Positions 8,851 to 63,024 are shown, counted from the whole stretch's first letter. The stretch: 63,179 nucleotides of DNA, filler included, from Reticulomyxa filosa (GCA_000512085.1; 13 parts of 13 records of this genome joined end to end with filler, not necessarily neighbours in it); one strand, 5' to 3'. Notes: generated by a model not told the origin, from the sequence alone. Numbers and translations: made by a program.

Positions 8851-9513
8851 TTAACCATTTTCGGCAACGAGTTTCAATTGGTTCGCTCGCACAAATACAC
8901 CCGATTGTTGGTCACATTTAAAATATACAATGTTATCAATCGAACCATTCGTGTTGCCTTTCATTGCCCCTTTCTTGTCCCCTCGGTCAATTAACTCAAT
9001 CCCATACCAAATCCCCGTCTCATCGAACATTGTCTGTCCAACAAAGCGCACCCGCCCTTTCCCATAATTATTCACGATTACCATTTCGTTCAAAGGAATT
9101 TGCTTTACTTCACTGTTTCCCTTTTTTTTTTTTTTTTTTTGCATTATGTACACACATTTTTTGAAAATTGGTGAGTCTTTTTTTTTTTTTGTATTGCCCT
9201 TTTTCACATGTATATGCATATGCGGTCCTTTCCCTTCTCCACCAGTTTTGACAACATATGTCACACGCTTCACTAAACTTTTCAAAACGGTTACAATGTC
9301 TTTGGATTGCACAAATATCCCGTGGTTTTCTGCACAGTTAAAGTACGCTCGGTTTCTCACCTTTCCATTGTGCTTGCCATCCTTTTTTTGTAACTCAACA
9401 CCAAACCAGGTTCGACCTGGGAAAAAATCAGTATGGCCTATATATTTTACTGCACCTTGCCCTCCATCTGATAATTCTACAATATCACCGTAACATATTC
9501 GTAACTTCGCCAT
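8851..9513 (-). CDS. Protein with two N-terminal CAP-Gly domains (CLIP/dynactin p150-like region), 3'-partial
   Basis: GAVKYIGHTDFFPGRTWFGVELQKKDGKHNGKVRNRAYFNC and GRVRFVGQTMFDETGIWYGIEL...GNTNGSIDNIVYFKC. In-frame intron 9121-9273. Confidence 0.9.
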   Translation of the reverse strand: MAKLRICYGDIVELSDGGQGAVKYIGHTDFFPGRTWFGVELQKKDGKHNGKVRNRAYFNCAENHGIFVQSKDIVTVLKSLVKRVTYVVKTGGEGKGPHMHIHVKKGNTKKKKDSPIFKKCVYIMQKKKKKKGNSEVKQIPLNEMVIVNNYGKGRVRFVGQTMFDETGIWYGIELIDRGDKKGAMKGNTNGSIDNIVYFKCDQQSGVFVRANQLKLVAENG

Positions 9514-9939
9514 CCACAATATTCCTAGTCTTAACTTGCTTCCCCTCCTTCCTTTTACACACTCTTAACTTGATTTTTCTCTTGTTTTTTTATTTTTTTG
9601 CATTCTTTGTTACGCTTTAGTTGCAGTTAAAATTTACAAAAAAATCAAACACTCTTTTCTCTTAAATTTTCAACGTTTTCAGCTTTTTTTTTCTCTCTAA
9701 GATTGATATTGTACAGTTTAAACAAGTTATTACTGAAAAAGTTACATGTGTCTATCTTAAATTGATTTGGTTTTTTTTTGGCGAATGAATTGATCTGTTC
9801 AGTTTATCATTATTGTTGTCATCTTTTGCATGCGAGTTACAAGAACGATAAAAATGAAATGTTTACAAATTGAGAACATGAAGAATGTGTTGCGATAGCA
9901 GGAAAAAAAAGATAACGAAAACATAAAAAAAAAAAAAAA

Positions 9940-13783: not shown

Positions 13784-13843
13784 AAAAAAAAAAAAAAAAT
13801 GAAATAATAATAATAATATAGTTTTAGTTTTAGTTTGTCCACA

Positions 13844-16800
13844 TACGTGACTTGAATCTTGTCTCCATTAGTTTTCAACAACACTTGCCTGCCATCACAC
13901 GAATTGGCGACAAAGTAGCATGGAAAATGGTGATGAAAATTTTCAGGTGTGATATCGAATCGTTTAATGTTGGCAAGTTTGTCTAAAACACCAAAACATA
14001 AAGAGTTAACTTCGCATAAATCTTCCCGTGTGACTTGCTTTCCAACCAATAGCTTCCACACGAAAGAGGAGAGATCCAAGTTCAAATGATGTTTGGAACG
14101 GATCATCATGCCCATCAATTTTCCAATGAAAGTGAACATGGACAAATGCAAAGAGGAATTGCAAGATGGGTTGGGAAGCCATTGTTCTTGATTTTCGCCA
14201 TAGCCTCGAGAATTGGGGCATTTGACGAACAGTTGCAAATGACTGGATTGCAAGTCTGCCGAAATGGCACTTAATGAGTCCCGGAATAACCCCCCTACGT
14301 CAGTGCCACCTTCTCCTTTATACGTCATGTTCCAGGGCCTACGATCAGAGCGACAGCGCAAGTACTTGGGTTTTATAAAATTTAGGACGCGATACATCTG
14401 TCCAAATGTGGACATTTTGAGTGCGTCAATGGAATCCTGTAAACGACCAGTGGCAGCTTTCTCGCGTGCCTGCAAAGCCTTGAGCCGATTCACAGTGACC
14501 TTTGGGGAACTCAAAGATGATGAAGAAGTGCTGTATAATACCGTCTTCCAAGGCTGTCGCTTCAAGTCATGGAAAATCAATGATCGCAAAGCGCAAAGTC
14601 TTGACGCCAACGACCAGTTCAAGCCAACTTGAGCAAAGTCAATCAATGGCAAAACCAATCGAATTTTGTGATTCAGCATTTGCAACATGACGTGTCTCCG
14701 CTTTAAAGTTTGCATTGCAATTCCATTCAAATGGACATATCTTTCCATCTGTGCGTCATTTGGATGCAAGGAATGAGCGATTATATCCGCCGGTAAGAGA
14801 CTCCGCAGCGCATTTCGTGCGTCTCGATTATCTTGATGATTGGGTGCACTTCGGAATTCTTGACTGGCAGTCTCTTGATAACAGCCCTCGAACAGCATTA
14901 TCACTTCATGATCCCAGCCCGATGTCTCCACGCTGCTGCCGCCGACGATCCAACGCCAAGGGTCGAATTCGGGCAGTTTCAATTGAGTCGCTTTCTGAAA
15001 GTAGTCTAAGGATATCTTTGTTTTGGACGAGGGGTCAATTTGATGTCGAAACTGCACGTACGAATAATTGGGCTTGCCAACCACATTGGCCTCTGCCGTA
15101 TACGTTTCGATTTCCTTTTGGGACAAACATCGCAAGTAATATCTACAATCCAATAGCGATGCACTCATTCCCATCGACCTCTCATTTGGAGACTGCTGCT
15201 GCTGCTGCTGCTTGAAACCATATTCGACACCAGGAGGACATTTACCAATGTAAATTGGATCGCTATTGTGTTTCAACGGGCCATCCGTTCGATGCTTTTT
15301 AACCAGCTTTCCACCTACGTACAGCTTCACGACGAATGAATTGCCTGTCACCGTGACGTGTCTCCAACGATGACCACTGGATACTTTCATACTGTGCGAT
15401 AATGATATCGTATTGTCTGCCTTTGTGATCACCTGCACTTGCAGAGTTATGTTCGAATTGCTGCCCGCAAAGTATATCCATGGCAACAACGACTTATTTT
15501 CGTGGTCCCCTTTTCGCAGAATGTTCCGTTTTCCATTCGCTCTCAACATTATGCCGTCGTCCAAATGAATCCAAAACATCACCGTGAACTCGACAATCTC
15601 GCTTATCCCGCCCGTCGGACACGGTTTTCCTGCCATTATTTCTTGGTTTTCTGCTAATATTACCCGCTTTCTCGGACCGACGAGATTATAGTACGACTCG
15701 ATGGCGTGCGTGATTTTCGCGACTTCCCCCAAAAACGACGAGGGGAATTGGTGACTGTTGCTCTTTGATGCCTGATCGACGATTTTACTTTCGACAGATG
15801 ACTGACTGCTCGAATGCAACGGCTTTGCCGAACTGGTCTTCGTATAGTTATTATCAAGTATATGTTCATTCGACTTGCAACGACGCTCTGCACTTGTCTT
15901 GCTTTCTTGTTTGATACTCTGATGCGCCGGCAACGTAAGCAAAGTCATGTCCACAAATTGATCGAACTTGGACAATTGAGCGGCAATGTACACCGGATTG
16001 TCGTTTGCAATGACGATCGTCTTGCCTTCGAGCTGATGTACACACAAGTGATGGGATGTGGGGTCATAGATATTCCGACGGATTCGGTATTCGATTTTCA
16101 GACTTTTTTGTGTCATCGGTACACTTGGGTCGGGATCGTCATTGAATAAGTCAGGAAGCACCGTTTTCCATTGTGATCGAGGAGGCACTATCCATTCATT
16201 TCATATTGAAGATTCATAGAAGGGAAGAAGGAAAGGGGGGGAAAAAAATAAATAAATAAAATAAAATTTCAATCTTTTTTATTTGTTTAATACAATCAAA
16301 CAAAAAGACATACATATCAAACGGGTCCCACTATAACGATTGACATGATCTTGTAGTTTATGCCTAATCTCTTTTGTCTTATTTTGCGCAAAAACGCCCC
16401 ACTCCGCGGAAATGATACATATTTTCCATATGTATATTTCAGTTTGATCATAAAGTAGTGCCTTCGATGGCGGTTGTGGCTGTGGTTTTGGCTTTGGCTT
16501 TGGTTTTGGCTTCGGCTTCGATTTCGATTTCGATTTCAATCCTGATGATTGATTGGCAGACGGGACGAGTGGATTGGCTTTGCTATCGCGTTGAATGGGT
16601 AATGTGACCCTTTTTTTGAGCTGCACAGCGGGTGACTGTGATTTGAATAATTCCGCAACTGCAAGCAACTCCATGAGCGCGTTTAAAAATCGCGATTGGA
16701 CTGGAAGCGCTTTGCAAGATATGTTCTCAATCACAGTATGCATTTTTTCCTTCAGTGGCTTCAGACGTCTCAGCTTTAAAATTGGCCGTGCATTGGCCGG

Positions 16801-20198: not shown

Positions 20199-23151
20199 TT
20201 AACAGAAAAATGTTTGTTTCGACCAAATTAAATCTTTCACTCTGTTTTTATATTTATCTCTCTCAACAAATGGTGATCCTTGGGAAAGAGTAGCTGCTGT
20301 TGCATATTCAATAACAGTAGTGTGTAGTACATTCTTTTCAAACAAAAAAATTGAGAATAAATTGATAGCATCGTTACAACAACGATTATTCACAAACTCA
20401 CTTTTTATTTCTTCATATCTTTGTTCATTATTGTTTTGTTTTTTCCAAGCATCAAATGCAAGTAGTACCTTGTTCAATCCATTTAATCTTTCCATAGAGA
20501 TTTGTAATTTTGATAACAACAGGTAAATGAGATTCAAATCAATAGAATGATTCCACATTGCACTTAGTTGCATAGTTTGTTGTATATACCTGTCATACAT
20601 TGCTGATGTCAATAGTATCATTTGTGTATGTTCATCTTCATCCTCTACTTTTGCATTCCATATTAATCGTTCTTTATGCAATTTCTCACTAGTGTCAAAC
20701 ATTATTCTTGATCTTGAAAACAAAATTTCACGTTCATGTTTGAATGGTGATATCCATGATACATCACAACTAAATATTCCATTTGCTCGTCTCATGGAAG
20801 GATGAAAATGTAAAATGCATCCGTGACTACCTCTAAACATTTTTGCAACTTCTATATCATCAGAAGTACTTACATAACTTATAAAATATCCTGCATTGAT
20901 TTCTTTTTCAACATTATCCAGTCTCACTCTTTTCAGCCCACAATATAATTCTATTTCACTTTCTTCGACTCTTTCATAGCTGCCCAAAATACCAATAGCA
21001 TCCAACAAACAACTATCTAAATAAGGCCATTTTTGATGTCTAAATTTTATCTGATCATAACTAAATTCAGCATTACATGATTTACCACAATACAATAAAA
21101 TTGCACAAATATGATGTAGTTGAAGTGGATATCCCATATGTTTATGAATATCATCATGATACAATATCTTCAATTCATTTAATATTGTTAATATTTTATC
21201 ATTTAATATCAGTTTACCATTTTTATCCTCTTCTTTATAATTAATTTGTTGTTTGATTCTTTCATAAATTTGTTTTTTCTCTTGTTTATTTTTTGTGTGT
21301 TGATGTGTGATTAAATCACGCAAATAATTATTTTTTATTATTTCATGTAATAGCTTCTGCAAATAATTATTTCTTATCAGCTTTGAATGCAATGTATCTT
21401 CAATAGTTTTAACTTTGTGAAAATCACATTCATACAATAATGGATTGAATGTAGGTTTTTCATTCGATGAAATAAATTCAACACTTAATTCATCATTTTC
21501 TGGTAAATTTGTTCTTTCTGTAGCAATTGTGCGTTCGTAGGGTACGATATATCTACATTCTATTTCCCAGTATACTTGAATACTCGGATAACCAAAAAAA
21601 TATTTGTAAATATCATGTAATAATATGTCTCCATTATTCTTATTTGTTTCAATTCGTGGCTTCCATTGTTCAAAATCACATTTGGAAGTTATTAGTTTAT
21701 CGCCTCCAAATAGAAAATGACTTCTCATTTGAAATTTATCTTTAATATGTTGTATTCCTTGTTTCAAAGTCGTTGAATAAGGATTCATCGGCTCTCTGAG
21801 TGTTTCCGTAGCTTTAATTTTCCAAAAGACATGGAAAGAATTGAACTCCTATGTACGTTTTATGTAAATGTCTTATTGAAAATGAATTCATGAAATTTGA
21901 AATGGCAAGGCATTTGTGAGTACTAGATTGAATTAACTGAACAACAATATGATAAATCATCTCTATCAAAACAATTCGCCATACGAAAGTGCCAAGTACG
22001 ATTGAGAATGAGACAAGCCCATTTGGTATGTGTTTGACTAATATCAGAATGATTATACCATTGAATATGAACATTGAATTCCAATGATGATCTTTTTGGA
22101 TTTCCAACTTGTAATGATTTTATTTTTAATTTATTTTTATCAAATAACATTATCGTTCGATGTTGATAATCGAACACACTTTCATAATCTTTCCATTTTC
22201 CATTCAATAATATACATACCATTCTTGGAATTGTAAATCTTATTTTATACCTGTATTTTATCAACAAAATAAACTAAACATTATTTGTAAGTCGTGTATT
22301 ACAACAAAATGCACAAACCATAAATAATACATGATTTGTTCTTCGCTAAAGAGTTGATAACATGTCCACAGCCATAATAAGTTGATGTTGCCATTTGAAT
22401 AATACCAATTATCATCATTGTATTTTTCAAATCCAAATCGCTGTAATAACTGTTCCATATGCCCAACTATTTTATCCATATTTTCACCTACTTGATGGCA
22501 TTTGGACTGTAAATTGTTATACAAATACTTACTACTGATTTGTCGATATTTCAAGTCCTTGGGATATTTCAACAGATTCCAGAATATATGCAAACATAAC
22601 TCTTTCATTATCTTTACTTTGTTATCTTGCTTGAATCTATCATATTCCAAGTGTCAACGAAAATGTTCTATCTTTTCTTAAAAGTAATGGGTATACTTAA
22701 ACAATTAACTCATTGATGCTGTCAAAGGAACAAATTTGTTTTAGTTTTGTCAACGCTTCGGTATAAAATTGATTGGAGTCCTTCCAGATTTGTAATATTA
22801 TTGCTTTTTCAACTTTGCCACCAAACCATTCAAATAACCTCATCAAAGACTTTTGTTGTTCTATGGTTGTACTGTGCGCGATATGTTATTAATTATTTTT
22901 GAAAGATTGTCAATGATATTTTTGATCATAAAGAGACTTTTTTTTTTAACGTATTTTCCGCGATCCAGGTCAAGACAGTCTTTGTATTCTCAATATTTCC
23001 CTTATACCTGCCCCATGCCTGTAAAATTACTTCTTCGTCTACGTTGGTGAAAGTTTCTTGAAGACTTGTGAGCATAATAATTGAGAAACTAGGATCCAAA
23101 TCAATTTCCTCCTTTCAATTGCAACAAAAAAGTTAACAGCTAAAATACCAT
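20199..23151 (-). CDS. CUE-CUE-PUB-(PH-like)-ubiquitin-like-ADP-ribosyltransferase (R-S-E clade) protein, about 864 aa
   Basis: Frame-consistent GT-AG model with exons 23151-23149, 23111-22951, 22871-22710, 22636-22331, 22250-21938, 21848-20199. PUB: IFWNLLKYPKDLKYRQI...LLQRFGF. ART: LYCGL / YVSTSDDIEVAKMF / DVSWISPFKHEREILF. Start exon tentative. Confidence 0.8.
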
Positions 23152-24617: not shown

Positions 24618-25776
24618 ATGTTAGATGAAACGATAACGTTTACAAATGATACGTGGCGTGTGTACTATCAACAAGCCCCAACACCGATATACGTAGAGTA
24701 TACAAGAAGGACCCCCAAAAGATTTGCTCAAATGGACAAGTTCTTTGAGGACTTGAAAACAGGAGACCTGCCACTTTTTACGTATGTTGCTTTCAACATG
24801 GAAAAAATGAAGGAACAGGAGACAGAGAAAAGACTGTAAAAAACAATTGAATTGTAATTGTGACAATGTTTATTACAAATTAGGTGGTTGGATCCAGCTT
24901 ACTGGAATTTGTATGATTTTGCAGCTACAGATGAGGTATGCCTTGGATAAAATTTTTTTTGAGAAAAAAAAAATGAAACAATACAAAAAAAAAAAAAAAA
25001 ATGTTCATCAAAAGCATCCTGATCATGATGTCACTCACGGAGAAAAGTTTTTGAAAAGATTATACGAATCATTACGACAATCACCAGTATGGGAAGATAC
25101 TCTTTTGCTCATATTTTTTGACGAGCATGGTGGATTTTTTGATCATGGTAAGTTTTCTTTTTTTTTGTTTTTTTTATCCATTTGCAATTTGTTGATGCGT
25201 CGTAAAAAAAATAAAATAAAATGCGTTAATGCGTTTTTGTGCATAGTCCCTCCACCCTTGGCAGTGAGTCCCGATGGACGTGCTGCTACTGATGTTACCC
25301 CGCCATTTAATTTCACTAGATATGGCCTTCGCATCCCGGCTGTGTTGGTGTCGCCTTATATTGAAAAAGGATCAATTTCGGACCGTCCGGACCCTGAGTC
25401 TTTGTCGCAGTATTCACACAGCTCATTTGTCCATACATTGAGAGAACAGTTTACCCCTAGCTATCCACCTTTGACCAAAAGAGATGAAATCTCATTGACC
25501 TTTGAACAAATCTTGAGCTTGGACTATCCACGACAAGATTGTCCAACTCAATTGCCTGATGTACCTTCGAATGAACAAGATTTACTTGCTTTGGGATTGA
25601 AAGAGGCCGCTTATGGAGCTATGCCGGTGAATGGCTTTCAGATTAGTTTGGCTAGTGCCATTGCTCCTTTGTGTGGTGCGTCGTATAATGATGTCATGGC
25701 ACACAGTAAAAATCAAGACACAATGGGCAGATTTGTAATGGATTGCTCCAACTACTTTGCGAACTCAGAAAAGTGA
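24618..25776 (+). CDS. Phosphoesterase family / non-specific phospholipase C (NPC-like), 5'-partial, multi-exon
   Basis: TWRVYYQ; HPDHDVTHGEKFLKRLYESLRQSPVWEDTLLLIFFDEHGGFFDH|VPPP; FNFTRYGLRIPAVLVSPYIEKG; YSHSS; LTKRD. Confidence 0.9.
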
Positions 25777-34206: not shown

Positions 34207-34610
34207 ATTTTTATGCTTTTCAGGACGAATGTAGATGTTTAAAAGAAACAACTATTTCCTTTTAACAATTTACTTTAGAAAATCGGATGTGTAGAAAGTT
34301 CTATTTTGGAAATAAATGTCCTATGAGCAATAATTGATAAATTCGAAAGAAAGTATTGTGTCCATGTTTTCGTGGAGTGAATGATGTAATCAAACTAAGC
34401 TCATCTTAGTTGAAATAAACTTTTTATTCTTTTACTTCTTTGACAAATGTATTATACTGAGACTTTATGTCAAAATATATTTATCCAAATTATTTTAAAA
34501 TTTTTCTTTCATTTTCAAATTCCTTCATCTGATTCAATAATATTGTCTTTCGTATCAACCAATTGCAACTTTAACAAAATTTGTTTTGGGATATTCAGCA
34601 ATATCATCGA

Positions 34611-35030
34611 ATGTAAATGACTCAGATGTATTATTATATAATATTTACAAACATCTTCCTCATTATCCAATTATTCAAGTACATTGGGAAATAAAATATT
34701 CATTCATGATATCGTACAAATGCACAATTAGTATTGAAAGAAAATAATTTTCAAACAGTATTCCATTTCAAAGATATTTCATTATATCCAAAATTGTATG
34801 AATATGATATTTACAAACTTAAAACGACTGAAGATACAAGAAACAACAATTTGCAAAAGCTGTATCTGTGTGATCTAATCAGAAAAAATTTACTACCAAA
34901 TGGTGAAGAGATAATTAAACAATAAATTAATTATAATGAAAAGGATGAATACGGTGAATTGATATTAAATAATAAAATATTAACAATATTAAATGAATTC
35001 ATAAATAAATGGGATATCCACTTCAACTGT
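34611..35030 (+). pseudogene. Decayed paralog of the CUE-PUB-Ubl-ART gene at 20199-23151
   Basis: DVLLYNIYKHLPHYPIIQVHWEIK...YKCTISIER; PKLYEYDIYKLKTTEDT; KQ*INYNEKDEYGELILNNKILTILNE; MGYPLQL. Colinear with the intact gene, with stops and deletions. Confidence 0.85.
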
Positions 35031-39391: not shown

Positions 39392-40351
39392 CTAGCCAGT
39401 TGCCGCCATTGCCAAGGCTTTTTCGCTGTCGGCTTTCTCGATGATTTGTTGTGTTTGCTTTTCAATCTCAATTTGTGCTTCGGCGTATCTTTGTTCTCGC
39501 AAAATCGTCAATTCGTTGGCTTGGTTAATACGCGCATCCAAAGCATTGACAGTTTCTCGAGTTTGTTCCAGCCATGCAACCAATTTCGACTTCATCTCTA
39601 TTTTTTTATTTAAAAAAAAAAATTTGTTACGTAACAAAAAAAAAAAAAGGGACACAACATGAAAAAATTAAGTTATGGAACCGAACCAGAAATTTGAGCA
39701 GCGTTAATATCTCTTCCCGAAACGTAGTCAATTTCTAATTGGTTTTTGGATTGATTCAATCTCCCATGAACGAGGCCTTCGTAAATGCAGTTGATGATAA
39801 CGTCTTCCAATTCACGAACCGTGCCAATGTCTAAACGGGTCATGAGATCGTTGTAATTTAATACTTTGCTTGCGCTCTTTTCCGCCAGACTCACCACACT
39901 CAATTGCTTCAATTTAAACAGTTGCTTTTCGTCAAGCTTTGGATATTTGCTTGAATTCGCTTTGTATTGTTCGTATGTACCCGACGCAAACAATTCCAAT
40001 ACATTGTACCACTCCCCTTGCTGTGTGCCCTTTAATGCTTTGGCATGTTCATGCTCCATTATCTCACCAAATGTGTACAGCCCTGGTAATCGCAGCGCTT
40101 GTTGAATGCAACCCCTGTTGTTTATGTTGTTTGTTTTACTTTGCTTTAATTTAATCTGCTTTAATTGTTTTTTTTTGTTGTTATCATGAGCAATGTGCTC
40201 TATTAATCTTTGTAAGTTCTTCAAAAACTATTGCATTTTTGTTGGCCTGTCGTTAACTTAACGCAGCAGCCAACCCTTTTGCTGATTTCAACATAATCAG
40301 GGTTGTTTCAAGGGGGGATGCTGATACCACTTCTTCTTTTTTTTCTGTCAT
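39392..40351 (-). CDS. CSN7: COP9 signalosome subunit 7 (PCI domain), 3 exons
   Basis: MTEKKEE...LKSAKGLAAA|CIQQALRLPGLYTFGEI...VLELFASGTYEQY...KLKQLSVVSLA...VRELEDVIINCIYEGLVHGRLNQ...VSGRDI. Confidence 0.9.
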
Positions 40352-42333: not shown

Positions 42334-42524
42334 CTTGAGTCCCTCCGTTTTTTAAAAAATAACAACTGGATTTGCTTTCTATGTGTCTCAAAGCGTAAAA
42401 TATGATTGTGAAAGTATTATTTATTTAAATTTATTCGGTGTTATGTCACAAAATTTAGTTAAAAATAGACACATTTTTGTTCAGTTCTGGTTAAAAAAAC
42501 TATAATAATACAAAATACAAAAAA

Positions 42525-44848
42525 ATGGACAGCGATATCGAATCAAAACAAATATTGGATACAAATGACCTCTCTGTCTTTGGATATTTACCTCCTTTGC
42601 CTGTATCCTTAAATAAGAGCCAATATATACTCTTCAAAGACGAAATTCTCATATGCGGAGGACAATACAAACGAGATTGTTATTCATACCACATAGTCAA
42701 AAATCAGTACAAGCTTATTTGTTCTTATCCAAAGAAAGTTGAATTGTGGGCACATAGCGTGGTGAAGCGTGTAGATAATAAAAATCCAAATACGATTACC
42801 TTATTATCCTTTGGTGGACAGCCTGAGCAGCAAGTTAAATATGCAATGGTGATGAAATATGTAAGTGTTTGGGATGAAAATGATAAAAAAGATAAAGATA
42901 AAGATGAGCTATATAATCAATGGACCCCTTTAATTGATAAAGACAAGAATGAAATTTATATTGGTAAAAATGAAAGCAATTATTGGGGAGTATGTGCCGT
43001 AATTGGTGGAAGTAATGATCATTTGTTGTTTATTTCGTATCGTCCAAAAAATATTGATGTGTTTAATTTGAATACATTTCAATATGTGAATGAAAGCACT
43101 TTACCAACTGATAATGGCGATATATGTTATCATTGTTTTTTGCCAACAATGAAAAAAAAAAATGAAATGATATTGTTTTGTAAAAAGACAGGATTTCTGA
43201 TTGAATACGATGAACAGCATAATACATTTCAATTTCAAAATTTGTATGTCTGTGCATCGCTTAGGACATTGGCCAGCTACATACATGTGTATATAGATGA
43301 TTGCATTTTATTCTTTGGTGGACATTCTTTGTTCTCAGAGCCAGTCAATACTGTTTATAAGTATTCAATACAAGAAAAGCAATGGATGAAATTTGAACAG
43401 ACTTTGCCCATGAAATTGAGCAATGGTGGTGCAATTATGAATGGAGATAATACATACATTCATATTTTTAGCAGAGACAATGAAGCGGAAACAGCGACAA
43501 AACATGTTAGGACAAAGGTGGAATATTGGATGAAAGAACCAACAGCGCAAGAAAGGGAGTGGACTTCGAACGAGAGCGAAAGAAATGAAATTGAAGAAAT
43601 GAAATTTGAAGTGGAGAGAATGAAAGAAGAAATTGATCTAAGAGAGTTGAGAGTTATGGAGCAGTTTGTTCATTTGTTTGTTCATTTTTTTGTTTGTTTG
43701 TTTGTATAATAACATCAACAACAACAACAACAAAACAATAGAGACAAAAAGAAATCAAAGTGACACTTCGATATTGGATTCGATCTTTTTTTATTAATAA
43801 AGGATGGATTAATGATTTTGACAATCTTATTTCACGCTATATTCTAGTTTGTTTGAATCCATTTTTTTTTAAAAAACTTTTTCTTTAAAAAAATTATATA
43901 TGTGTATATGTATACATACATATCTCATTATATTATTTACGATAGATGAGATATTTCAAACTACTGAAAGCCTTTCAAACAAGTACTGAAGAGAATAGTA
44001 TAAATCTTTCACCTGACGGAACTAAGATTGTTTTGTCTTCATCTGACAATCTGATTCGTGTATTGGATATAAAAACTGAACATGAAATTAATGTTTTTAA
44101 AGGACATTCAAAGCAAGTAAATGATGCAGAATTTTCACCAGATGGAAATATGATTGTGTCATGTTCGGTGGATAAGACAATTCGAGTATGGGATTTGAAC
44201 TCAAAACAGGGAATGAAAATATTAATAGGACACTCAGACAGTGTAACAAGAGCACAGTTTTCATCTGATGGTAACTTTATTGTGTCGAGCTCATTAGATA
44301 CAACAATTCGATTGTGGGATGTAAATAATGGAAAAGAAATAAAATGTTTGGAAGGACATACGAAATCAGCACAGGGTGTACAATTTTCATTGAATGGACA
44401 AACAGTCATATCGGCGTCAATGAATAATACAATTGAAATATGGGATATTAAATCTGGTGTTAAGACTAATGTATTGAAGGACAATGGAGCTACTATTATT
44501 GGAGTACAGTTATCTTGGGATTCACTTTTTGTTTTATCTTATTCAAAAGACAAAGTAATTCAAGTATGGGATATTGCTTCAGGAAAAAAAATTAAACAAT
44601 TGGCAGAACACAAAAACAGGATAATAAATGCAAAATTTCTTCCTGGCAGTCAAGCTATTGTATCATGTTCGGATGGAGGCAAGCTTCGTTTGTGGGATAT
44701 AAAAACTGAACAAGAGTATCAGGAGCTGATACGTCATTCTAATTTTGCAAAAGGGATAGGTATTTCAGCAGACGGTTGCACAATTGTGTCATATTACGCT
44801 GATAAAACAATTCGATTATGGAAACTAATTACAAAGATTTGCAACTAA
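42525..44848 (+). CDS. Kelch-like beta-propeller + short helical motif + WD40 repeat protein, about 711 aa
   Basis: Exons 42525-43652, 43742-43846 and 43946-44848 splice in frame. Kelch-type GG motifs; about 7 GH..WD repeats (FSPDGNMIVSCSVDKTIRVWD). Confidence 0.88.
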
Positions 44849-51614: not shown

Positions 51615-54121
51615 TTATTCTTCCATCCAATCTTCATCGTTATCATCATCACCGTCAGCTTCGTCCATGACAAACTCTCTGTATTTGTCCAAGCTTTTCT
51701 TCAAAACGTTTTGCATATCTTCAGGTTGCACTGACGGCCTTCTGGCTTCGGTGGGGTCCACAACTTTTAAAGTATTGCTTTTGTTGAACCCACGGATTCC
51801 AGCCAGCAAATTGTTGCGTGGACTTGCAGAGTTTACGCTTAATTTATTATTGTTACTTGGAGGCACTTTTGGTGCAAGACCGGTTGGTGGAGGTTTCGGC
51901 ACGTTCGTCTGCGACATCTGTGGAGAATCATCCGTCAATTTAGGCGGAGGGGGTATGAAAGCACCCGTTTTCGGGAGAACGGATGTCGAATTTGCTGATG
52001 TGTATTTTTTATTTGTTTTAAAGTTGTAATTGTTAAGGATCAGCTGTTTGTGTGTTGAATCTTTGAGATGTGATTAAATGCATTTTTTTACAAGTATTAC
52101 AAAAAAAAAAAACACACACATAATACATTTGGTTAGCTCCGCTCTCGGTGGTGGCCTACTAGGAGGCGGTTCAGGGTAATCATTCATAGAAACACTCTTT
52201 TGAATTAAGCCACTGTCACGCGGAGGTAGACGGCCGGATATTGGCGGCGGAGGAGGTTGAGACGAAGAAGAAGATGATGAAGAGAAAGGAGGAGGATGAG
52301 ATGGGGGCGGAGGTTGTGATTGATATTGTGTCTGATATTGTGAGACAGCTTTCGCAGACACATGCGTTGAAGTGTGTTGACTTTGGCCCGAATTTGATGA
52401 TGATGCAAAAGATGATGAATTCCCATCATGGGCAATCTCTTTTTCAATTGAATACGTCTGCACAAACCCTCGAGGCAAAATTGTACCTTCTTCTCTGGCC
52501 TTGCGCCACTCTTGGATTTGCTTTGATGTTTTATTATTTTAATGAATTTAAAAAAAAAAAATAATATAATAATGTTCAAAAAAAAAAAAAAACTTTAATG
52601 ATGTCGGGATCTTTGATATGCATTTGTTCCTCTTTTCCCTCGGGCGAAGTTTCTTTTTTCTGAAGACGCAGCATCAGATCGATGGGATTGGTGGGATGCA
52701 AGTTGTGCTCTTCTTCGTCGATGGCCGACTCGATGGCTGACGTCCACGAGTCCACTTGCTTTTTGGACTTGCAGAAGAATGTGATAAATCCCCATTCCGC
52801 GGATTCGGGCACAAATTTTTTGTTTTGCGTAATGATGGCAAAGCGATGCTCCCCGTCGACAATGTTCGCCTTTGCCGGCAGCGGCGTGTCATACACCACA
52901 CGTAGCTCAAACGTCGGCAGCACCGACAACACCTTCCCGCCCTTCTTCGGCAACGTGGTCAGAATCACCAAGTCATTGCACAATATCACAAACCCTTCCT
53001 TGTCTTTCGTTCCTTGTCCTTCCAAGTAGCGAATGTTCGAAGTCCGATATACCATTCGATGGGGTTTCGCCAAGTCAACTTTGTTCTTGAACAGTTTTCT
53101 TTGCAGTTCTCCGCAAAGCTTAACAAAAAGGATAAACATATACACATATATACATGTATGTATATATGTATATATGTTTATTATGTAATATTTAAAAAAA
53201 ATGTGTTGTTTACCATTCTAGATTTTTTTTCTTTACTTTTGGTAGCGACTTGATCGATCATTTTTTTCATAAAGTCAACGGCTTCCAATAAACTTTCACC
53301 CGAGCTCCCGCCGCCTTCGTGTATAATGGCGGTATACAAGTCCGCGAGTAGCTGCAGATAGGTGGGCAATCGCTTAATGGGCTCTTCCAAGTACGATTGC
53401 AAAGAGCGTCCACACAGCTCTTCGCTCACTTCTAAAAAGTCAACCAATTTCTTGTTCTTCTTTTTCAGCGCTTCCAACGCACCCACTCCCGCTTTCACAT
53501 TGTCAATGTACTCACTGTACAGCTTCAAAAAATGCCCAAATCGCTTCATTTGTGCTCCAATCCCATCTCTTATCGCTGGCAATCCGCCTTTGATCCCTTT
53601 TTAAGTTGTTTTGTTTTATTGCACTTGCGTTCAGTCTCTTTATATATATATATATATGTATATATGTACATATATATATATGCATATGTATATGCACGTA
53701 TATGTATGTATATATGTGACATGCATGGACACATGCCTAATTTGATCAAATCATCCAAAAAAGTTTGATTGGCATCACCAATCGTTTGGAATCCTCCGAA
53801 AATGGTAAAAATATCGCTCTCTGAGAGGATCGAGTGATTGCGCTTTGCCATGATGGCCAGTCGATGCTGAAAGTGGTGATACCCATTCTTCAGGTTTTCC
53901 ACGTAACGTCGCTCACTGTCATAAAACGCAAATATGGCTTCTTCCATTGTCACTTTTCGCTCTTTTGCAACTGGCTTGTTTGTGCTTTCGCTGTTCTCTG
54001 ATTCCGTACTTGATGGGATTGCCTTTTCTTCATCTTGCTGTTGCGGCTTTGCTCTTGGGGGCGCTTTTGTCGGGTTTGGAGGTAGACTAGGTGGGGGAGG
54101 AGGTGCAGAATATTCACTCAT
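51615..54121 (-). CDS. DH-PH RhoGEF with proline-rich region and C-terminal WH2-central-acidic (VCA-like) module, 5 exons
   Basis: DH: FYDSERRYVENLK...IFTIFGG...FLKLYSEYIDN...SLQSYLEEPIKRLPTYLQLL. PH: FVILCNDLVIL...FFCKSKKQVDSWTSAI. Tail: NNLLAGIRGFNKSNTLKVV..DMQNVLKKSLDKYREFV..DDDNDEDWMEE. Exons join in frame. Confidence 0.88.
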
Positions 54122-54516
54122 GTTTTAGTACTGTTTTTTTTTTTAGGTGGGCTTACTTTTTTTTAAAAACCAAACACACTAGTGATCTCGTCTGTCGAAG
54201 TTTCATTTTTAGTTTAAAACGATAGAATTGTAATAAACAATATCAAAAGTAATGAAGAAGAAGTATTTTTACAATCTTTCATATCTCTAAAAATCAATAT
54301 TTCGTCGTTTTTTTTGTGGCAGTATATTTGTTGGGTTTGAAAAGATTTGGTTAATTTAAATGTAATGCAGGAAATACACAAACATTATTGCGTCCGTAAA
54401 TTATCAAATATTCGATTGAGAAAAACGTTAACAGATAATTCAAGTTAAATGAGGCACAATAAATTTGAGCTTTGACAGTTTTGAATTCCTTTACCTTTTT
54501 TAAAAGGAAAAAAAAA

Positions 54517-56087
54517 ATGCACTCTAATCAGTGGTCTGGCATTCAACAGTGTTCTAAAAAGTCTGCAGATTTTTCGAAAAATGTATCATCAGATTCAACA
54601 AGCAAAATTATCATATCTTTGACATCAGATGGTGCATCATGGTTGACAACAGCCTTAACGTCTGAAAAAAAGCCATCAGCAGCACCATCAGCAGGCCCAA
54701 CAGCCCCAAAGCCCGGGTTGTTGCCCCGACCGAGCATTCGCATCACATCAGGGAGACAATGGGTACTGCCAAAAAAGGCAGACAAAGAAGCATACATGAC
54801 GAAAGACCTCGAGCTTTTGAAAATGCCAAACCAGAAACTACATAATCTGAATCATTTGCAACCGGACGAGATGATATTCCAGCCCATGTATTTCGGCATC
54901 GACCCATATTTGGTCGGACGATTATCAGGATATGTTGGCCGCACAGTGCGTTCACAAGCGATTGTGCGCATTATCGCCTCGCGTTGCCACGACTACCAAC
55001 AAGGAGATGTGTTCTGGTCGCGCGATTTCCCGTGGACGACCGCCCACGTGCTCACCAAGTCCAAAGTCGACCGCTGGGTGCAGCTGCGAACTATGCTAAA
55101 GATTTCCTCATCGAAAAAGAAGGAGGAGAGAGAGGAGACCACACAAGAGCCAGACATGTTGTCTCTCTTGTATTTGGGCGCCCTGGGGACCACCGGGCTC
55201 ACCGCTTACTATGGTCTCCTAACCATCGGCTGTCTCAAAGAGGGAGACAAAGTTTTCATTTCTGGTGCCGCAGGTATGTTTTGGCTTTGTACGTGACGCA
55301 TGCATAGATATACATATACGTGTATATATCATGTATTTATATGCATATATACATATACATATACATATATGTATATATAATTAATGATATCATAGGAGCA
55401 ACTGGTTATATTGCAGGACAAATTGCGAAACTAAAGTACAAGAACATATATTTGGCGGGAAGTGCGGGGAGCGATGAGAAGGTGCAGTGGCTGATCAAAG
55501 AACTAAATTTTGACAATGGATTGAATTACAAGCAATTTGGCGAGGACAGGAAGAAGATGCAACAATGTTTACAACAGTTGTTTCCCAACGGGATTGATTT
55601 GTATTTTGATAACACTGGAGGGTTGATCACCGAATGTGTGTGGGACTTGCTAAACTCAAAAGCTCGAGTCGTGGTTTGTGGACAAATTGCACGGTATGAT
55701 AAAATTACACGGTTGAAAAAGACCAAAATCCAATCTTCTTCTTCTTCTTCTTCTGCTACTGCTGCTGCTGATGGTGATAATGATAGTGATTCATCTTCTT
55801 CGATTGGCAAAATCGATGATTTTTTATTCAAACTCATATATAAAGAAATTCGAATTCAAGGGTTTGATGTGGACGATTGCAAAGACTGGACCCCTTTTTA
55901 TCGAGATATGAAAAATTGGATTTCGAAAAAGCAACTCTACACAAAAGAAACGGTCGCACTTGGCTTTGAAAATCTCCCTTCCGCTCTCGAAGGGCTATTT
56001 ACTGGGAAAAACACTGGCAAAATGATTGTCAAGTGCACCGACGCTGATCTCGCCTCTGATCAGTCGTCTCTCAAAAGCAAACTCTAA
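54517..56087 (+). CDS. NADP-dependent alkenal/prostaglandin reductase-like oxidoreductase (MDR family), 2 exons
   Basis: IDPYL; YLGALGTTGLTAYYGLL; VFISGAA|GATGYIAGQIAK; GSAGSDEKV; GIDLYFDNTGG; GLFTGKNTGKMIV. Intron 55274-55395. Confidence 0.92.
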
Positions 56088-61700: not shown

Positions 61701-62437
61701 ATGCTTCTACTTTCCTCTCTTTTTCTCAACTATTTTGTATTTATTTCATCCGATCGCCCTGAGGGTTCTATGAGCAATTCAAATAATCTAGCTTATAATA
61801 CAAATAAAGATAATTATAAATTACCTGAAGGATTCACATACCTTTCTGATATTGCACCAGAAATTGAGCAATATGTAATGTATGCAAAAAAAGATAATTT
61901 TCTTGGAAATAAAGTAAATGGTTATGAAAAAGAAGTTATAATTTGTACTGAGCAAGCAGCTAAAGCTTTAAAAAAATTAATGCAGAGCTCAATAAATTTA
62001 ATTTAGGCTTCAAAGTTTTTGATGCCTATAGGCATCAAAGAGCAGTAAATCATTTCAAAGAATGGTCGTTAGATGCATCTGATCAGATAGTGAAAGCGAA
62101 TTACTATCCCAATATTAATAAAAAGGATCTTTTTGATAAGGGCTATATCGCATTGTTGTCTGGACATAGTAGAGGTAGTACAGTTGATCTTACAATTATT
62201 GATATTTCATCTAAAGAAGAATTAGAAATGGGGACGAAAATTGATTTTATGGATGAGCTTTCTCATACTGAAAACCCTGATATTTCCAGCGAAGCTAAAA
62301 AGAATAGATTGATGTTTAGGTTGATAATGGAAAAGTATGGTTTTGAAAATTACTCTAAAGAATGGTGGCATTTTACGTTAAAAGATGAACCTTTCAAAAG
62401 AAAACCAGAGGATCATTTTGACTTTCCAATTAGGTAA
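61701..62437 (+). CDS. ddpX: Bacterial D-alanyl-D-alanine dipeptidase (VanX/DdpX, peptidase M15D), frameshifted in A7 run 61970-61976
   Basis: YAKKDNFLG..GY; FKVFDAYR.QRAV (after adding one A); SGHSRGSTVDLT; EWWHF zinc ligands. No introns. Confidence 0.9.
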
Positions 62438-62472
62438 ATATTCTGCAAGTTTCGATATTATTATGGTTATTC

Positions 62473-63024
62473 ATGTCTCCTACAAATGATGTTACTCCAA
62501 AAGATATTATAAACTTTTGGTATGATAAAGCTCACCAAAAACTTTGGTTTGCAAAAGATATTAATTTTGACAATGAGATCAGGAAAAATTTTATCGATAC
62601 CTATAGCAAGGCTCTTGAAGGTAAATTGAAGAGTTGGGAAGAAAGTGAAGAGGGTATATTAGCCTTAGTTATTATTTTTGATCAATTTTCTCGCAATATG
62701 TTTAGAGATTCGCCCCAAGCTTTTGCAACGGATCAAAAGGCTTTAAATTTAGCAAAGCAAGCAATAGCTAAAGGTTGGGATAAAGAATTAAAACAAGAAT
62801 ATAAGCAATTTTTGTATATGCCTTTTATGCATAGTGAGAATTTAGAAGATAATGAGATGGGAGTGAAATTATTGGGGAAAACTGAGGAGAATCAAAGATA
62901 CGCAGTAATGCATAGGGATATAATAAAGAGGTTTGGAAGATTTCCTCATCGCAATAACATTCTCAATAGAAGCTCTACAGAAGAAGAAGTCGAATTTCTT
63001 AAGCAAAAAAATTCATCTTTTTAA
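62473..63024 (+). CDS. Bacterial DUF924 family protein
   Basis: IINFWY..WFAKD..FD.EIR; LALVIIFDQFSRNMFR; FLYMPFMHSE; HRDIIKRFGRFPHRN.ILNR.ST.EE. Starts 35 nt after the ddpX stop. Confidence 0.93.
   Translation: MSPTNDVTPKDIINFWYDKAHQKLWFAKDINFDNEIRKNFIDTYSKALEGKLKSWEESEEGILALVIIFDQFSRNMFRDSPQAFATDQKALNLAKQAIAKGWDKELKQEYKQFLYMPFMHSENLEDNEMGVKLLGKTEENQRYAVMHRDIIKRFGRFPHRNNILNRSSTEEEVEFLKQKNSSF

Follow-up and report, generated by a model that had tools for sequence, protein, structure and literature searches.

A foraminiferal protein with a predicted ADP-ribosyltransferase fold lacking both NAD-phosphate arginines and flanked by ubiquitin-system-like domains

Can a protein with the fold and catalytic glutamates of an ADP-ribosyltransferase (ART) still be a transferase when the arginines that hold nicotinamide adenine dinucleotide (NAD) are gone? 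The question is raised by RFI_09804 of the giant amoeba Reticulomyxa filosa, a minus-strand gene in the stretch of DNA analysed here (63,179 nucleotides, hereafter the window). The initial annotation of the locus proposed an intracellular, toxin-type R-S-E mono-ADP-ribosylating enzyme, coupled to CUE, PUB and ubiquitin-like modules and recruited to ubiquitinated, p97-bound substrates. The peptides on which it relied are found where it placed them on the minus strand, and the 549-codon open reading frame (ORF) at 20199-21848 (-) is identical to the C-terminal part of RFI_09804 (P0001, 817 residues). Our best explanation, which we hold tentatively, is that the protein is a pseudo-ART devoid of both NAD-phosphate arginines, with a likely arginine-capturing cleft as proposed for the effector XopAI. 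It would thus likely capture arginine-bearing partner proteins rather than act as a classical toxin enzyme.

An ART fold without its NAD arginines

The ART domain, which carries helical insertions, spans 20595..21527 (all features of this gene are on the minus strand). Fold searches were run with a full-length AlphaFold2 model, and the rows they returned were filled by ART and PH domains. The best VIA match was ART2.2 (Z 14.9, root-mean-square deviation (rmsd) 3.2, 195 residues aligned), with HopU1 (13.8), ExoS (13.7), XopAI (13.3) and the toxin/immunity entry 6drh (13.3) behind it; Foldseek returned ExoS at E=5e-4, and the model contains the split beta-sheet of the ART fold. Structure prediction therefore agrees with the ART assigned to the locus initially. 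Sequence searches were weaker: the Pfam ART profile was detected in 9/50 paralogs but not in RFI_09804 itself, and searches of the PDB gave ExoT at E=2.1 with RFI_09804 as the query, and ExoT and ART2.2 at E 0.05-0.09 with a profile of the wider clade described below. A sulfotransferase match in the PDB, obtained with family profiles, was discarded as irrelevant.

Two of the three R-S-E elements are present, as had been annotated: the S-T-S motif (residues 595-597, 20862..20870) and the E-x-E motif (E640-R-E642, 20727..20735) are both intact. The arginine is not. Strand beta1 reads Y-C-G instead of [YFL]-R, with Cys571 (20940..20942) at the 'arom-R' position, and Ile535 (21048..21050) occupies the helix 'aliph-R' position, which is Arg in canonical ARTs; the position aligned with the helix Asn of ART2.2 is likewise altered, to Ser or Cys. 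Both NAD-phosphate arginines are absent, and the R-S-E label fails on its first letter.

This change is not peculiar to one protein. Two things set the register of beta1: HMMER alignments to ART2.2 and ExoT, and the natural member P0145, whose residue in that column is Arg. We collected 169 ART segments of at least 95 residues from the R. filosa family of RFI_09804 and from the wider clade around it; among the 168 with a residue at beta1, this residue was Ser in 68, Cys in 66, Thr in 22, Arg in two and another residue in ten. The two segments with Arg belong to P0145, from ENA, and P0085 (R. filosa RFI_27877); P0145 also carries the helix Arg and is a fully canonical natural clade member. Once 21 segments lacking coverage and the truncated P0067 were dropped, 57 family and 90 non-family members remained, and the helix Arg was found in 83/90 of the latter and 0/57 of the former. 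Thus, the wider clade is short of one NAD-phosphate arginine and the RFI_09804 family is short of both.

The arom-R arginine is described as positioning NAD (PMC8120803, PMC6829252) and as essential in the ubiquitin-modifying effector CteC (PMC10810742), and one tabulation gives its absence as the reason why human ARTC4 (G-S-E) is inactive (PMC11088682). ART2.2, HopU1, ExoS/ExoT and Tre1 (PF01129), the best fold matches as a group (Z 12-14.9), share STS and ExE with RFI_09804; however, they have both the arom-R and aliph-R arginines, are secreted, GPI-anchored (glycosylphosphatidylinositol) or injected, and none has its domain set. The closer parallel is XopAI of Xanthomonas, in which the two Arg motifs have become F-T-G and V-L-E while ExE is retained; it uses E265 to bind an Arg peptide and seems unsuited to NAD (PMC6829252). 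The two proteins share an ARTC fold (Z 13.2-13.3 to PDB entries 6k93, 6k94 and 6kly), the replacement of both arginines and an ExE motif. We favour a pseudo-ART because the family shows this very pattern: NAD would not be used, and an Arg side chain would be read through E640/E642. Nevertheless, XopAI is a single-domain injected effector, whereas the RFI_09804 family is endogenous, multi-exon, multidomain and eukaryotic, with 10-12% identity to XopAI; we propose a resemblance in behaviour, not membership.

Maintenance of the cleft and what it may bind

We then asked whether the cleft is maintained. Among the 57 family members, counting gaps as losses, STS and ExE were intact in 37 (RFI_09804 included), seven had damage to ExE only, none had lost S595 alone and 13 had lost both. 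S595 is thus kept in 44/57, the S595 losers are also without ExE in 13/13 cases, and 20/57 members have a damaged STS or ExE. The association between S595 and E640 (phi = 0.80) exceeded that of all 589 matched site pairs, while that between S595 and E642 (0.30) was unremarkable. Positions 522, 523, 527, 531, 606 and 637 were lost together with S595/ExE: F/Y606 is kept in 37/37 intact but 3/13 dead members, and G523 in 31/37 versus 2/13. These sequences are not independent, and a quick tree, rather than a careful search, requires six changes to the dead state, two of them forced by well-supported branches. The same tree groups the R. filosa family with two metagenome fragments (97% SH-aLRT). 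Since STS and ExE are either kept or lost together with other cleft residues, the cleft is under selection.

Such joint conservation is, however, equally to be expected of an active enzyme, and this brings in the explanation that comes second in our estimation: an arginine-specific mono-ADP-ribosyltransferase with a rebuilt NAD site, in which other basic residues or a partner contact the phosphates and the accessory domains tether the enzyme to ubiquitinated substrates or to ubiquitin. It is a serious possibility, although a less probable one than the pseudo-ART. Intact STS and ExE in most of the family and their loss as a block are in its favour, as are the retention of S595, E640 and E642 (each in 89/90 non-family members) and the fact that ExE is described as typical of Arg-modifying ARTs (PMC8120803). 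Basic residues that could contact the phosphates are conserved (R/K577 99%, R621 98%, R647 94%), and tethering could offset a weak affinity for NAD. Yet both phosphate-binding arginines and the helix Asn position are changed, and the conserved basic residues do not follow the integrity of the cleft: none of the candidate substitutes at 538, 541, 574, 577, 607, 621, 622 and 647 tracks its loss. R647 was considered as the replacement Arg and rejected, as it is conserved (94%, 98%) but present in 36/37 intact and still in 11/13 dead members, and is probably structural. The catalytic positions S595, E640 and E642 rank within the top 4% of sites by conservation in the non-family set, which is biased because it was picked by similarity to the profile, but change at median rates in the family (42nd-58th percentile). 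Finally, the PUB pocket is incomplete (see below). The toxin-type mono-ADP-ribosylation of p97-bound substrates first proposed for this locus is thus possible, but it is not the best-supported reading.

Several observations weigh against the pseudo-ART besides the way in which STS, ExE and the aromatic residue at 606 are retained together. XopAI has an altered STS (A-A-S/A-T-S) and an acidic residue at the aliph-R position, whereas in the RFI_09804 family the STS is intact and the helix residue neutral (Ile535 in RFI_09804). K638 co-varies with the cleft, if weakly and marginally (p=0.02). The ART of the wider clade retains its helix Arg and is found at the N-terminus of putative bacterial NACHT-WD40 proteins, where an enzyme usually sits. 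Moreover, the authors of the XopAI study could not exclude enzyme activity (PMC6829252), and ART4, tabulated as inactive in one source, is listed with mono-ADP-ribosylation activity in another (PMC7955679).

A third explanation is that the cleft is catalytic without being a protein ART, acting as an NAD glycohydrolase or on a nicotinamide nucleotide of smaller size. Of its two halves, the one for nicotinamide and Glu is kept (Y521, S595-T-S, F/Y606, E640 and E642) and the one for the adenosine phosphates is changed (531, 535 and 571), an assignment that we presume from alignment to ART2.2/ExoT and from known structures. We nonetheless consider this explanation improbable: the residue most tightly coupled to S595 is the acceptor-recognising E640 (phi 0.80 versus 0.30 for E642), an indication that the acceptor or ligand is Arg and not water.

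Gene model and accessory domains

The window consists of contigs strung together with 12 paired 44-N spacers between them, so that genes on other contigs are not genomic neighbours; RFI_09804 lies on a 6,135-bp contig (18288-24422). We predict five exons joined by GT-AG introns (22950-22872, 22709-22637, 22330-22251 and 21937-21849) into a stop-free chain, consistent with the in-frame splicing to PUB, PH, ubiquitin-like and ART exons that had been suggested. Openness alone does not pick this model, as 24 of the 672 splice combinations tried from the ATG at 23151 are stop-free; the chain was chosen because its junctions match those of paralog gene models, and because 17 codons at intron 3 are modelled with low confidence. 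The splicing thus remains a gene prediction resting on junction signals and paralog homology.

The first exon (22951..23075, donor GT at 22950) is predicted to encode CUE-like repeat 1. It is the only one missing from the public model, which has four exons and begins in exon 2; of the two CUE-like exons reported to lie outside the ORF track, the second is thus part of the public model, and paralogs support the first. A Met stands at the column equivalent to ATG 23075 in 13/20 paralog N-termini, so that translation more likely starts there than at ATG 23151; a start at the latter with a 37-nt intron is possible but less likely. The product would then have about 851 residues, by arithmetic from the 864-residue chain. 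Intron 1 (22872..22950, 79 nt), whose junction agrees with paralog gene models, leads to exon 2 (22710..22871), which encodes CUE-like repeat 2 with three helices by DSSP (H2-7, H13-22 and H27-45). Intron 2 (22637..22709, 73 nt) and intron 4 (21849..21937, 89 nt) are both found in the splice-combination check and in the public model. They enclose exon 3 (22331..22636, the PUB-like domain), intron 3 (22251..22330) and exon 4 (21938..22250, the PH-fold domain). Intron 3 is probably 80 nt long according to the splice-combination check; in the public model the donor lies later (22279) and 17 codons are kept, for which the predicted local distance difference test (pLDDT) is below 50 (residues 148-167) and which are missing from several paralog models. 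The last exon encodes an internal beta-grasp domain (21537..21842), the ART domain, a third CUE/UBA-like repeat (20433..20585, a lead only) and, at the C-terminus, a helical domain whose R-C-C-N motif is near-invariant, ending with the stop codon (20199..20432). No signal peptide or membrane segment was seen by inspection of the sequence, made without a dedicated predictor, in keeping with the intracellular location proposed initially.

The full chain, modelled from a 50-sequence alignment, reached a pLDDT of 84.7 and a predicted template-modelling score (pTM) of 0.87, which is high for so many domains and suggests a compact assembly. In exon 4, model residues ~170-272 match the C-terminal PH domain of pleckstrin (Z 9.8, rmsd 2.1, 84 residues aligned) and many other PH domains (Z 8-9), so that the PH-like exon noted earlier has a PH fold. 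The beta-grasp segment was folded alone (pLDDT 85.8). Its top VIA rows were ubiquitin-fold domains, at modest Z (5.1-6.5), with the UBL, UBX and PB1 subfamilies tied within about one Z unit, and Foldseek returned ubiquitin at E=0.049. The ubiquitin-like reading of this segment is therefore upheld at the level of the fold; the domain is internal, without a C-terminal GG.

The PUB and CUE assignments are weakly supported, by sub-threshold but concordant evidence. The Pfam CUE profile (PF02845) matched exon 1 at E=0.063, below the cut-off, and CUE was found in 1/50 paralogs; the match in P0059 (E=0.002) was likewise below the cut-off. Ubiquitin-binding residues of CUE domains comprise an M-F-P motif and a terminal Leu. 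When repeat 1 was aligned with 20 paralog N-termini, Phe and the terminal Leu were present in 20/20 and Pro in 14/20, with no Met; RFI_09804 has F-T where 14/20 paralogs carry F-P. By hhalign, repeat 1 resembles repeat 2 (probability 94%) and the tail repeat (71%), repeat 2 and the tail repeat score 0.7%, and unrelated-segment controls stay below 4%. The tail repeat also matched UBA/CUE/HBS1_N clusters in the Atlas (score 0.79-0.80), and the further CUE-like tail of the initial annotation is retained as a lead.

For the PUB-like domain of exon 3, the Pfam profile (PF09409) gave E=0.0038 and 17.6 bits against a cut-off of 34.3; PUB was detected in 7/50 paralogs at E<=0.05 (best E=1.9e-4), Atlas structure rows were mostly PUB clusters below the bar for naming, and a sequence search of the PDB with this exon gave no match. 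A pocket motif N-x4-P-x3-[KR]-Y, with PNGase-like spacing, was present in 35/48 PUB matches (N-x4-P-x3-K-Y in RFI_09804); its Asn and Pro we take to be the PNGase pocket positions. We looked in these 35 carriers for the two residues linked to p97 binding, mapping by spacing and not by superposition: the cornerstone Asn (HOIP N102) was Asn in 4/35 at Tyr+7 and 0/35 at Tyr+8, and the equivalent of PNGase Arg55 was Arg in 0/35 at Tyr+4. In HOIP, even a conservative change of Asn102 is described as abolishing peptide binding, and Arg55 of PNGase as binding the p97 C-terminus (PMC4017264, PMC5389986, PMC5559722). Binding of p97 by the PUB-like domain, a central element of the initial annotation, is thus doubtful because both equivalents are absent; PUB ligands other than p97 exist, such as OTULIN. 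Because the model of the full chain forms a single compact unit, the main part played by PUB and beta-grasp may be a structural one.

Compared with the PUB-containing p97 cofactors (PNGase, HOIP and the PUB-UBX protein UBXD1/UBXN6), RFI_09804 shares PUB-like, beta-grasp and CUE/UBA-like domains, but it lacks equivalents of the cornerstone Asn and of Arg55, has a PH domain between PUB and beta-grasp, and has a beta-grasp domain no nearer to UBX than to other subfamilies. SidE/SdeA (Z 9.0 for SidE) and CteC likewise tie an ARTC fold to ubiquitin via an accessory module (PMC10810742, PMC7827354). These are bacterial effectors with an intact R-S-E, whereas the ubiquitin link of RFI_09804 is a domain prediction. 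In the pseudo-ART that we favour, a cytoplasmic protein of ~850 residues, the CUE repeats would bind ubiquitin, and the flanking CUE-, PUB-, PH- and ubiquitin-like domains would bring the ART cleft to ubiquitin-marked or membrane-bound complexes.

Two family-specific motifs are near-invariant and outdo the catalytic glutamates in conservation: R-C-C-N in the tail (~20360-20385 (-)) and H-F-H-P-S-M-R-R between beta3 and beta4 of the ART domain (~20790-20810 (-)).

A Pfam scan of 30 ORFs of the window gave a match at E<=0.001 in 11. One ORF, at 13786-16200 (-), combines a LamG-like domain (E=9e-10) with a HECT domain (E=3e-14); the matches also included CAP-Gly (8854-9564 (-)), a phosphoesterase (24811-25773 (+)), PCI (39676-40227 (-)), Kelch (42495-43706 (+)), WD40 (43946-44845 (+)), RhoGEF (53573-54124 (-)), a zinc-binding dehydrogenase-like domain (54469-56084 (+)) and DUF924 (62434-63021 (+)).

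A large family within a wider clade

One search recovered 81 proteins, 80 labelled R. filosa (RFI_09804 included) and one ENA record, which bears out the lineage-specific expansion suspected from the locus. Residues 1-375, compared with shorter proteins, gave 34 matches, 33 labelled R. filosa. Among 255 proteins fetched, 133 have a family-specific domain, 30 have PUB, PH, ubiquitin-like and ART domains in order and 14 have the full set from the second CUE-like repeat to the tail; many of the models are partial, and these are protein counts, not gene counts. Some paralog models are fused to TPR, WD40 or Kelch repeats, and these could be gene-model fusions.

The family might also be a decaying one, in which the domains persist as structural relics that a repeat-rich genome has multiplied and have no specific role towards ubiquitin or p97. 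The partial models, the members with damaged STS/ExE (20/57) and the sub-threshold CUE and PUB scores go in this direction, as does a frame-broken family fragment at 34601-35029 (+) of the window, on a 1,264-bp contig, which aligns with P0001 residues 334-380, 404-493 and 502-512 in alternating frames. Against this, RFI_09804 has a long ORF and a confident model, the PUB-PH-ubiquitin-like-ART order is kept in 30/255 proteins, cleft residues are lost non-randomly and conservation is 92-100% in family motifs like HFHPSMRR; we regard general decay as unlikely. The pseudo-ART family would serve in defence or surveillance, mixing intact copies with cleft-dead ones, a role suggested by the expansion, the mixture of intact and dead copies, the TPR, WD40 and Kelch fusions of paralogs and the bacterial WD40-repeat carriers described below.

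In a profile search of 1.84 billion representatives, 584 proteins matched at E<=0.001, and the listing covered the best 150 of them. Among 20 proteins looked up, seven were from Bolivina or Nonionella, three from R. filosa and one was labelled as a bacterial metagenome-assembled genome (MAG). The clade signature is Y-[STC]-G ... STS ... CDVSWISxFxxExE. This [S/T/C]-S-E clade (Bolivina, Nonionella, ENA) shares its signature with RFI_09804 and has PH, PUB and ubiquitin fusions too; it differs in keeping the helix Arg (83/90) and in being without the family's own CUE, PUB, PH, ubiquitin-like and tail profiles. Fusions include a strong PUB pair (E=2e-16) with PH in P0241 (ENA) and, in Bolivina, an RZ finger with a weak RING in P0193 and ubiquitin with a weak RanBP/NZF finger in P0159; P0239, P0234, P0125 and P0233 complete the set, in which PUB, PH, SAM (Nonionella) or CNH also occur. 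These separate fusions, to a PUB pair with PH, to ubiquitin and to an RZ finger, make a connection with the ubiquitin system plausible for the clade as a whole. Two tandem ART-fold domains were seen in P0106, P0108, P0112 and P0232, the second copy being divergent in P0106 and P0108.

The clade also reaches bacterial assemblies. P0118 is labelled as an Aestuariibacter MAG but lies on a 945-bp contig and is possibly a mis-binned eukaryotic fragment. An uncultured Bacteroidota MAG (G001, ~0.9 Mb; L001:3543-10469 (+), L002, L003) contains an intron-less ORF of more than 2,300 codons in which a clade ART (Y-S-G, SSS, EEE, helix Q-R) precedes a nucleoside triphosphatase (NTPase)-like region and WD40 repeats; two ART matches occur in this genome. 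P0129, with Pfam WD40, is similar. NACHT is a candidate label for the NTPase-like region, read from its sequence and not from a profile match. The presence of the clade ART in this genome suggests host-symbiont exchange, in one or the other direction. None of 19 pattern matches in viral contigs was confirmed, nor was any of 55 matches to a single-protein query in metagenome contigs.

It is known more generally that eukaryotes have recruited toxin-like mono-ARTs (PMC3417536). Our literature search found no description of this architecture or of an arginine-less clade; it covered few subscription papers, and an earlier mention is possible, for example in the genome paper. Automatic names give ART or CUE labels to single paralogs. 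The folds that we describe are known ones in a combination that is undescribed, and the change at the active site is both clade-wide and unexpected. A bolder reading, which we think rather unlikely, is that hundreds of intracellular foraminiferal ARTs work without the R-S-E-defining arginine, are wired recurrently to ubiquitin-system and membrane-targeting domains, and are shared with NACHT-WD40 proteins of one small-genome Bacteroidota member. One Reticulomyxa branch would then have become an immune arsenal of 80-plus ubiquitin-coupled members, some active and others decoys, with a new NAD-binding mode or substrate chemistry.

The beta1 arginine is treated as defining and essential in cholera-toxin-like ARTs, and here a large natural clade has dropped it with STS and ExE nearly invariant. 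Either these proteins are enzymes that bind NAD, or some different substrate, in a new way, or the ART fold has been converted on a large scale into an arginine reader, a use with XopAI as the only structural precedent that we found; either outcome changes the annotation of ART-fold proteins. If true, a free-living eukaryote whose cytoplasmic ARTC folds are tied to ubiquitin-system domains would provide the host-side equivalent of bacterial effectors that modify ubiquitin by ADP-ribosylation.

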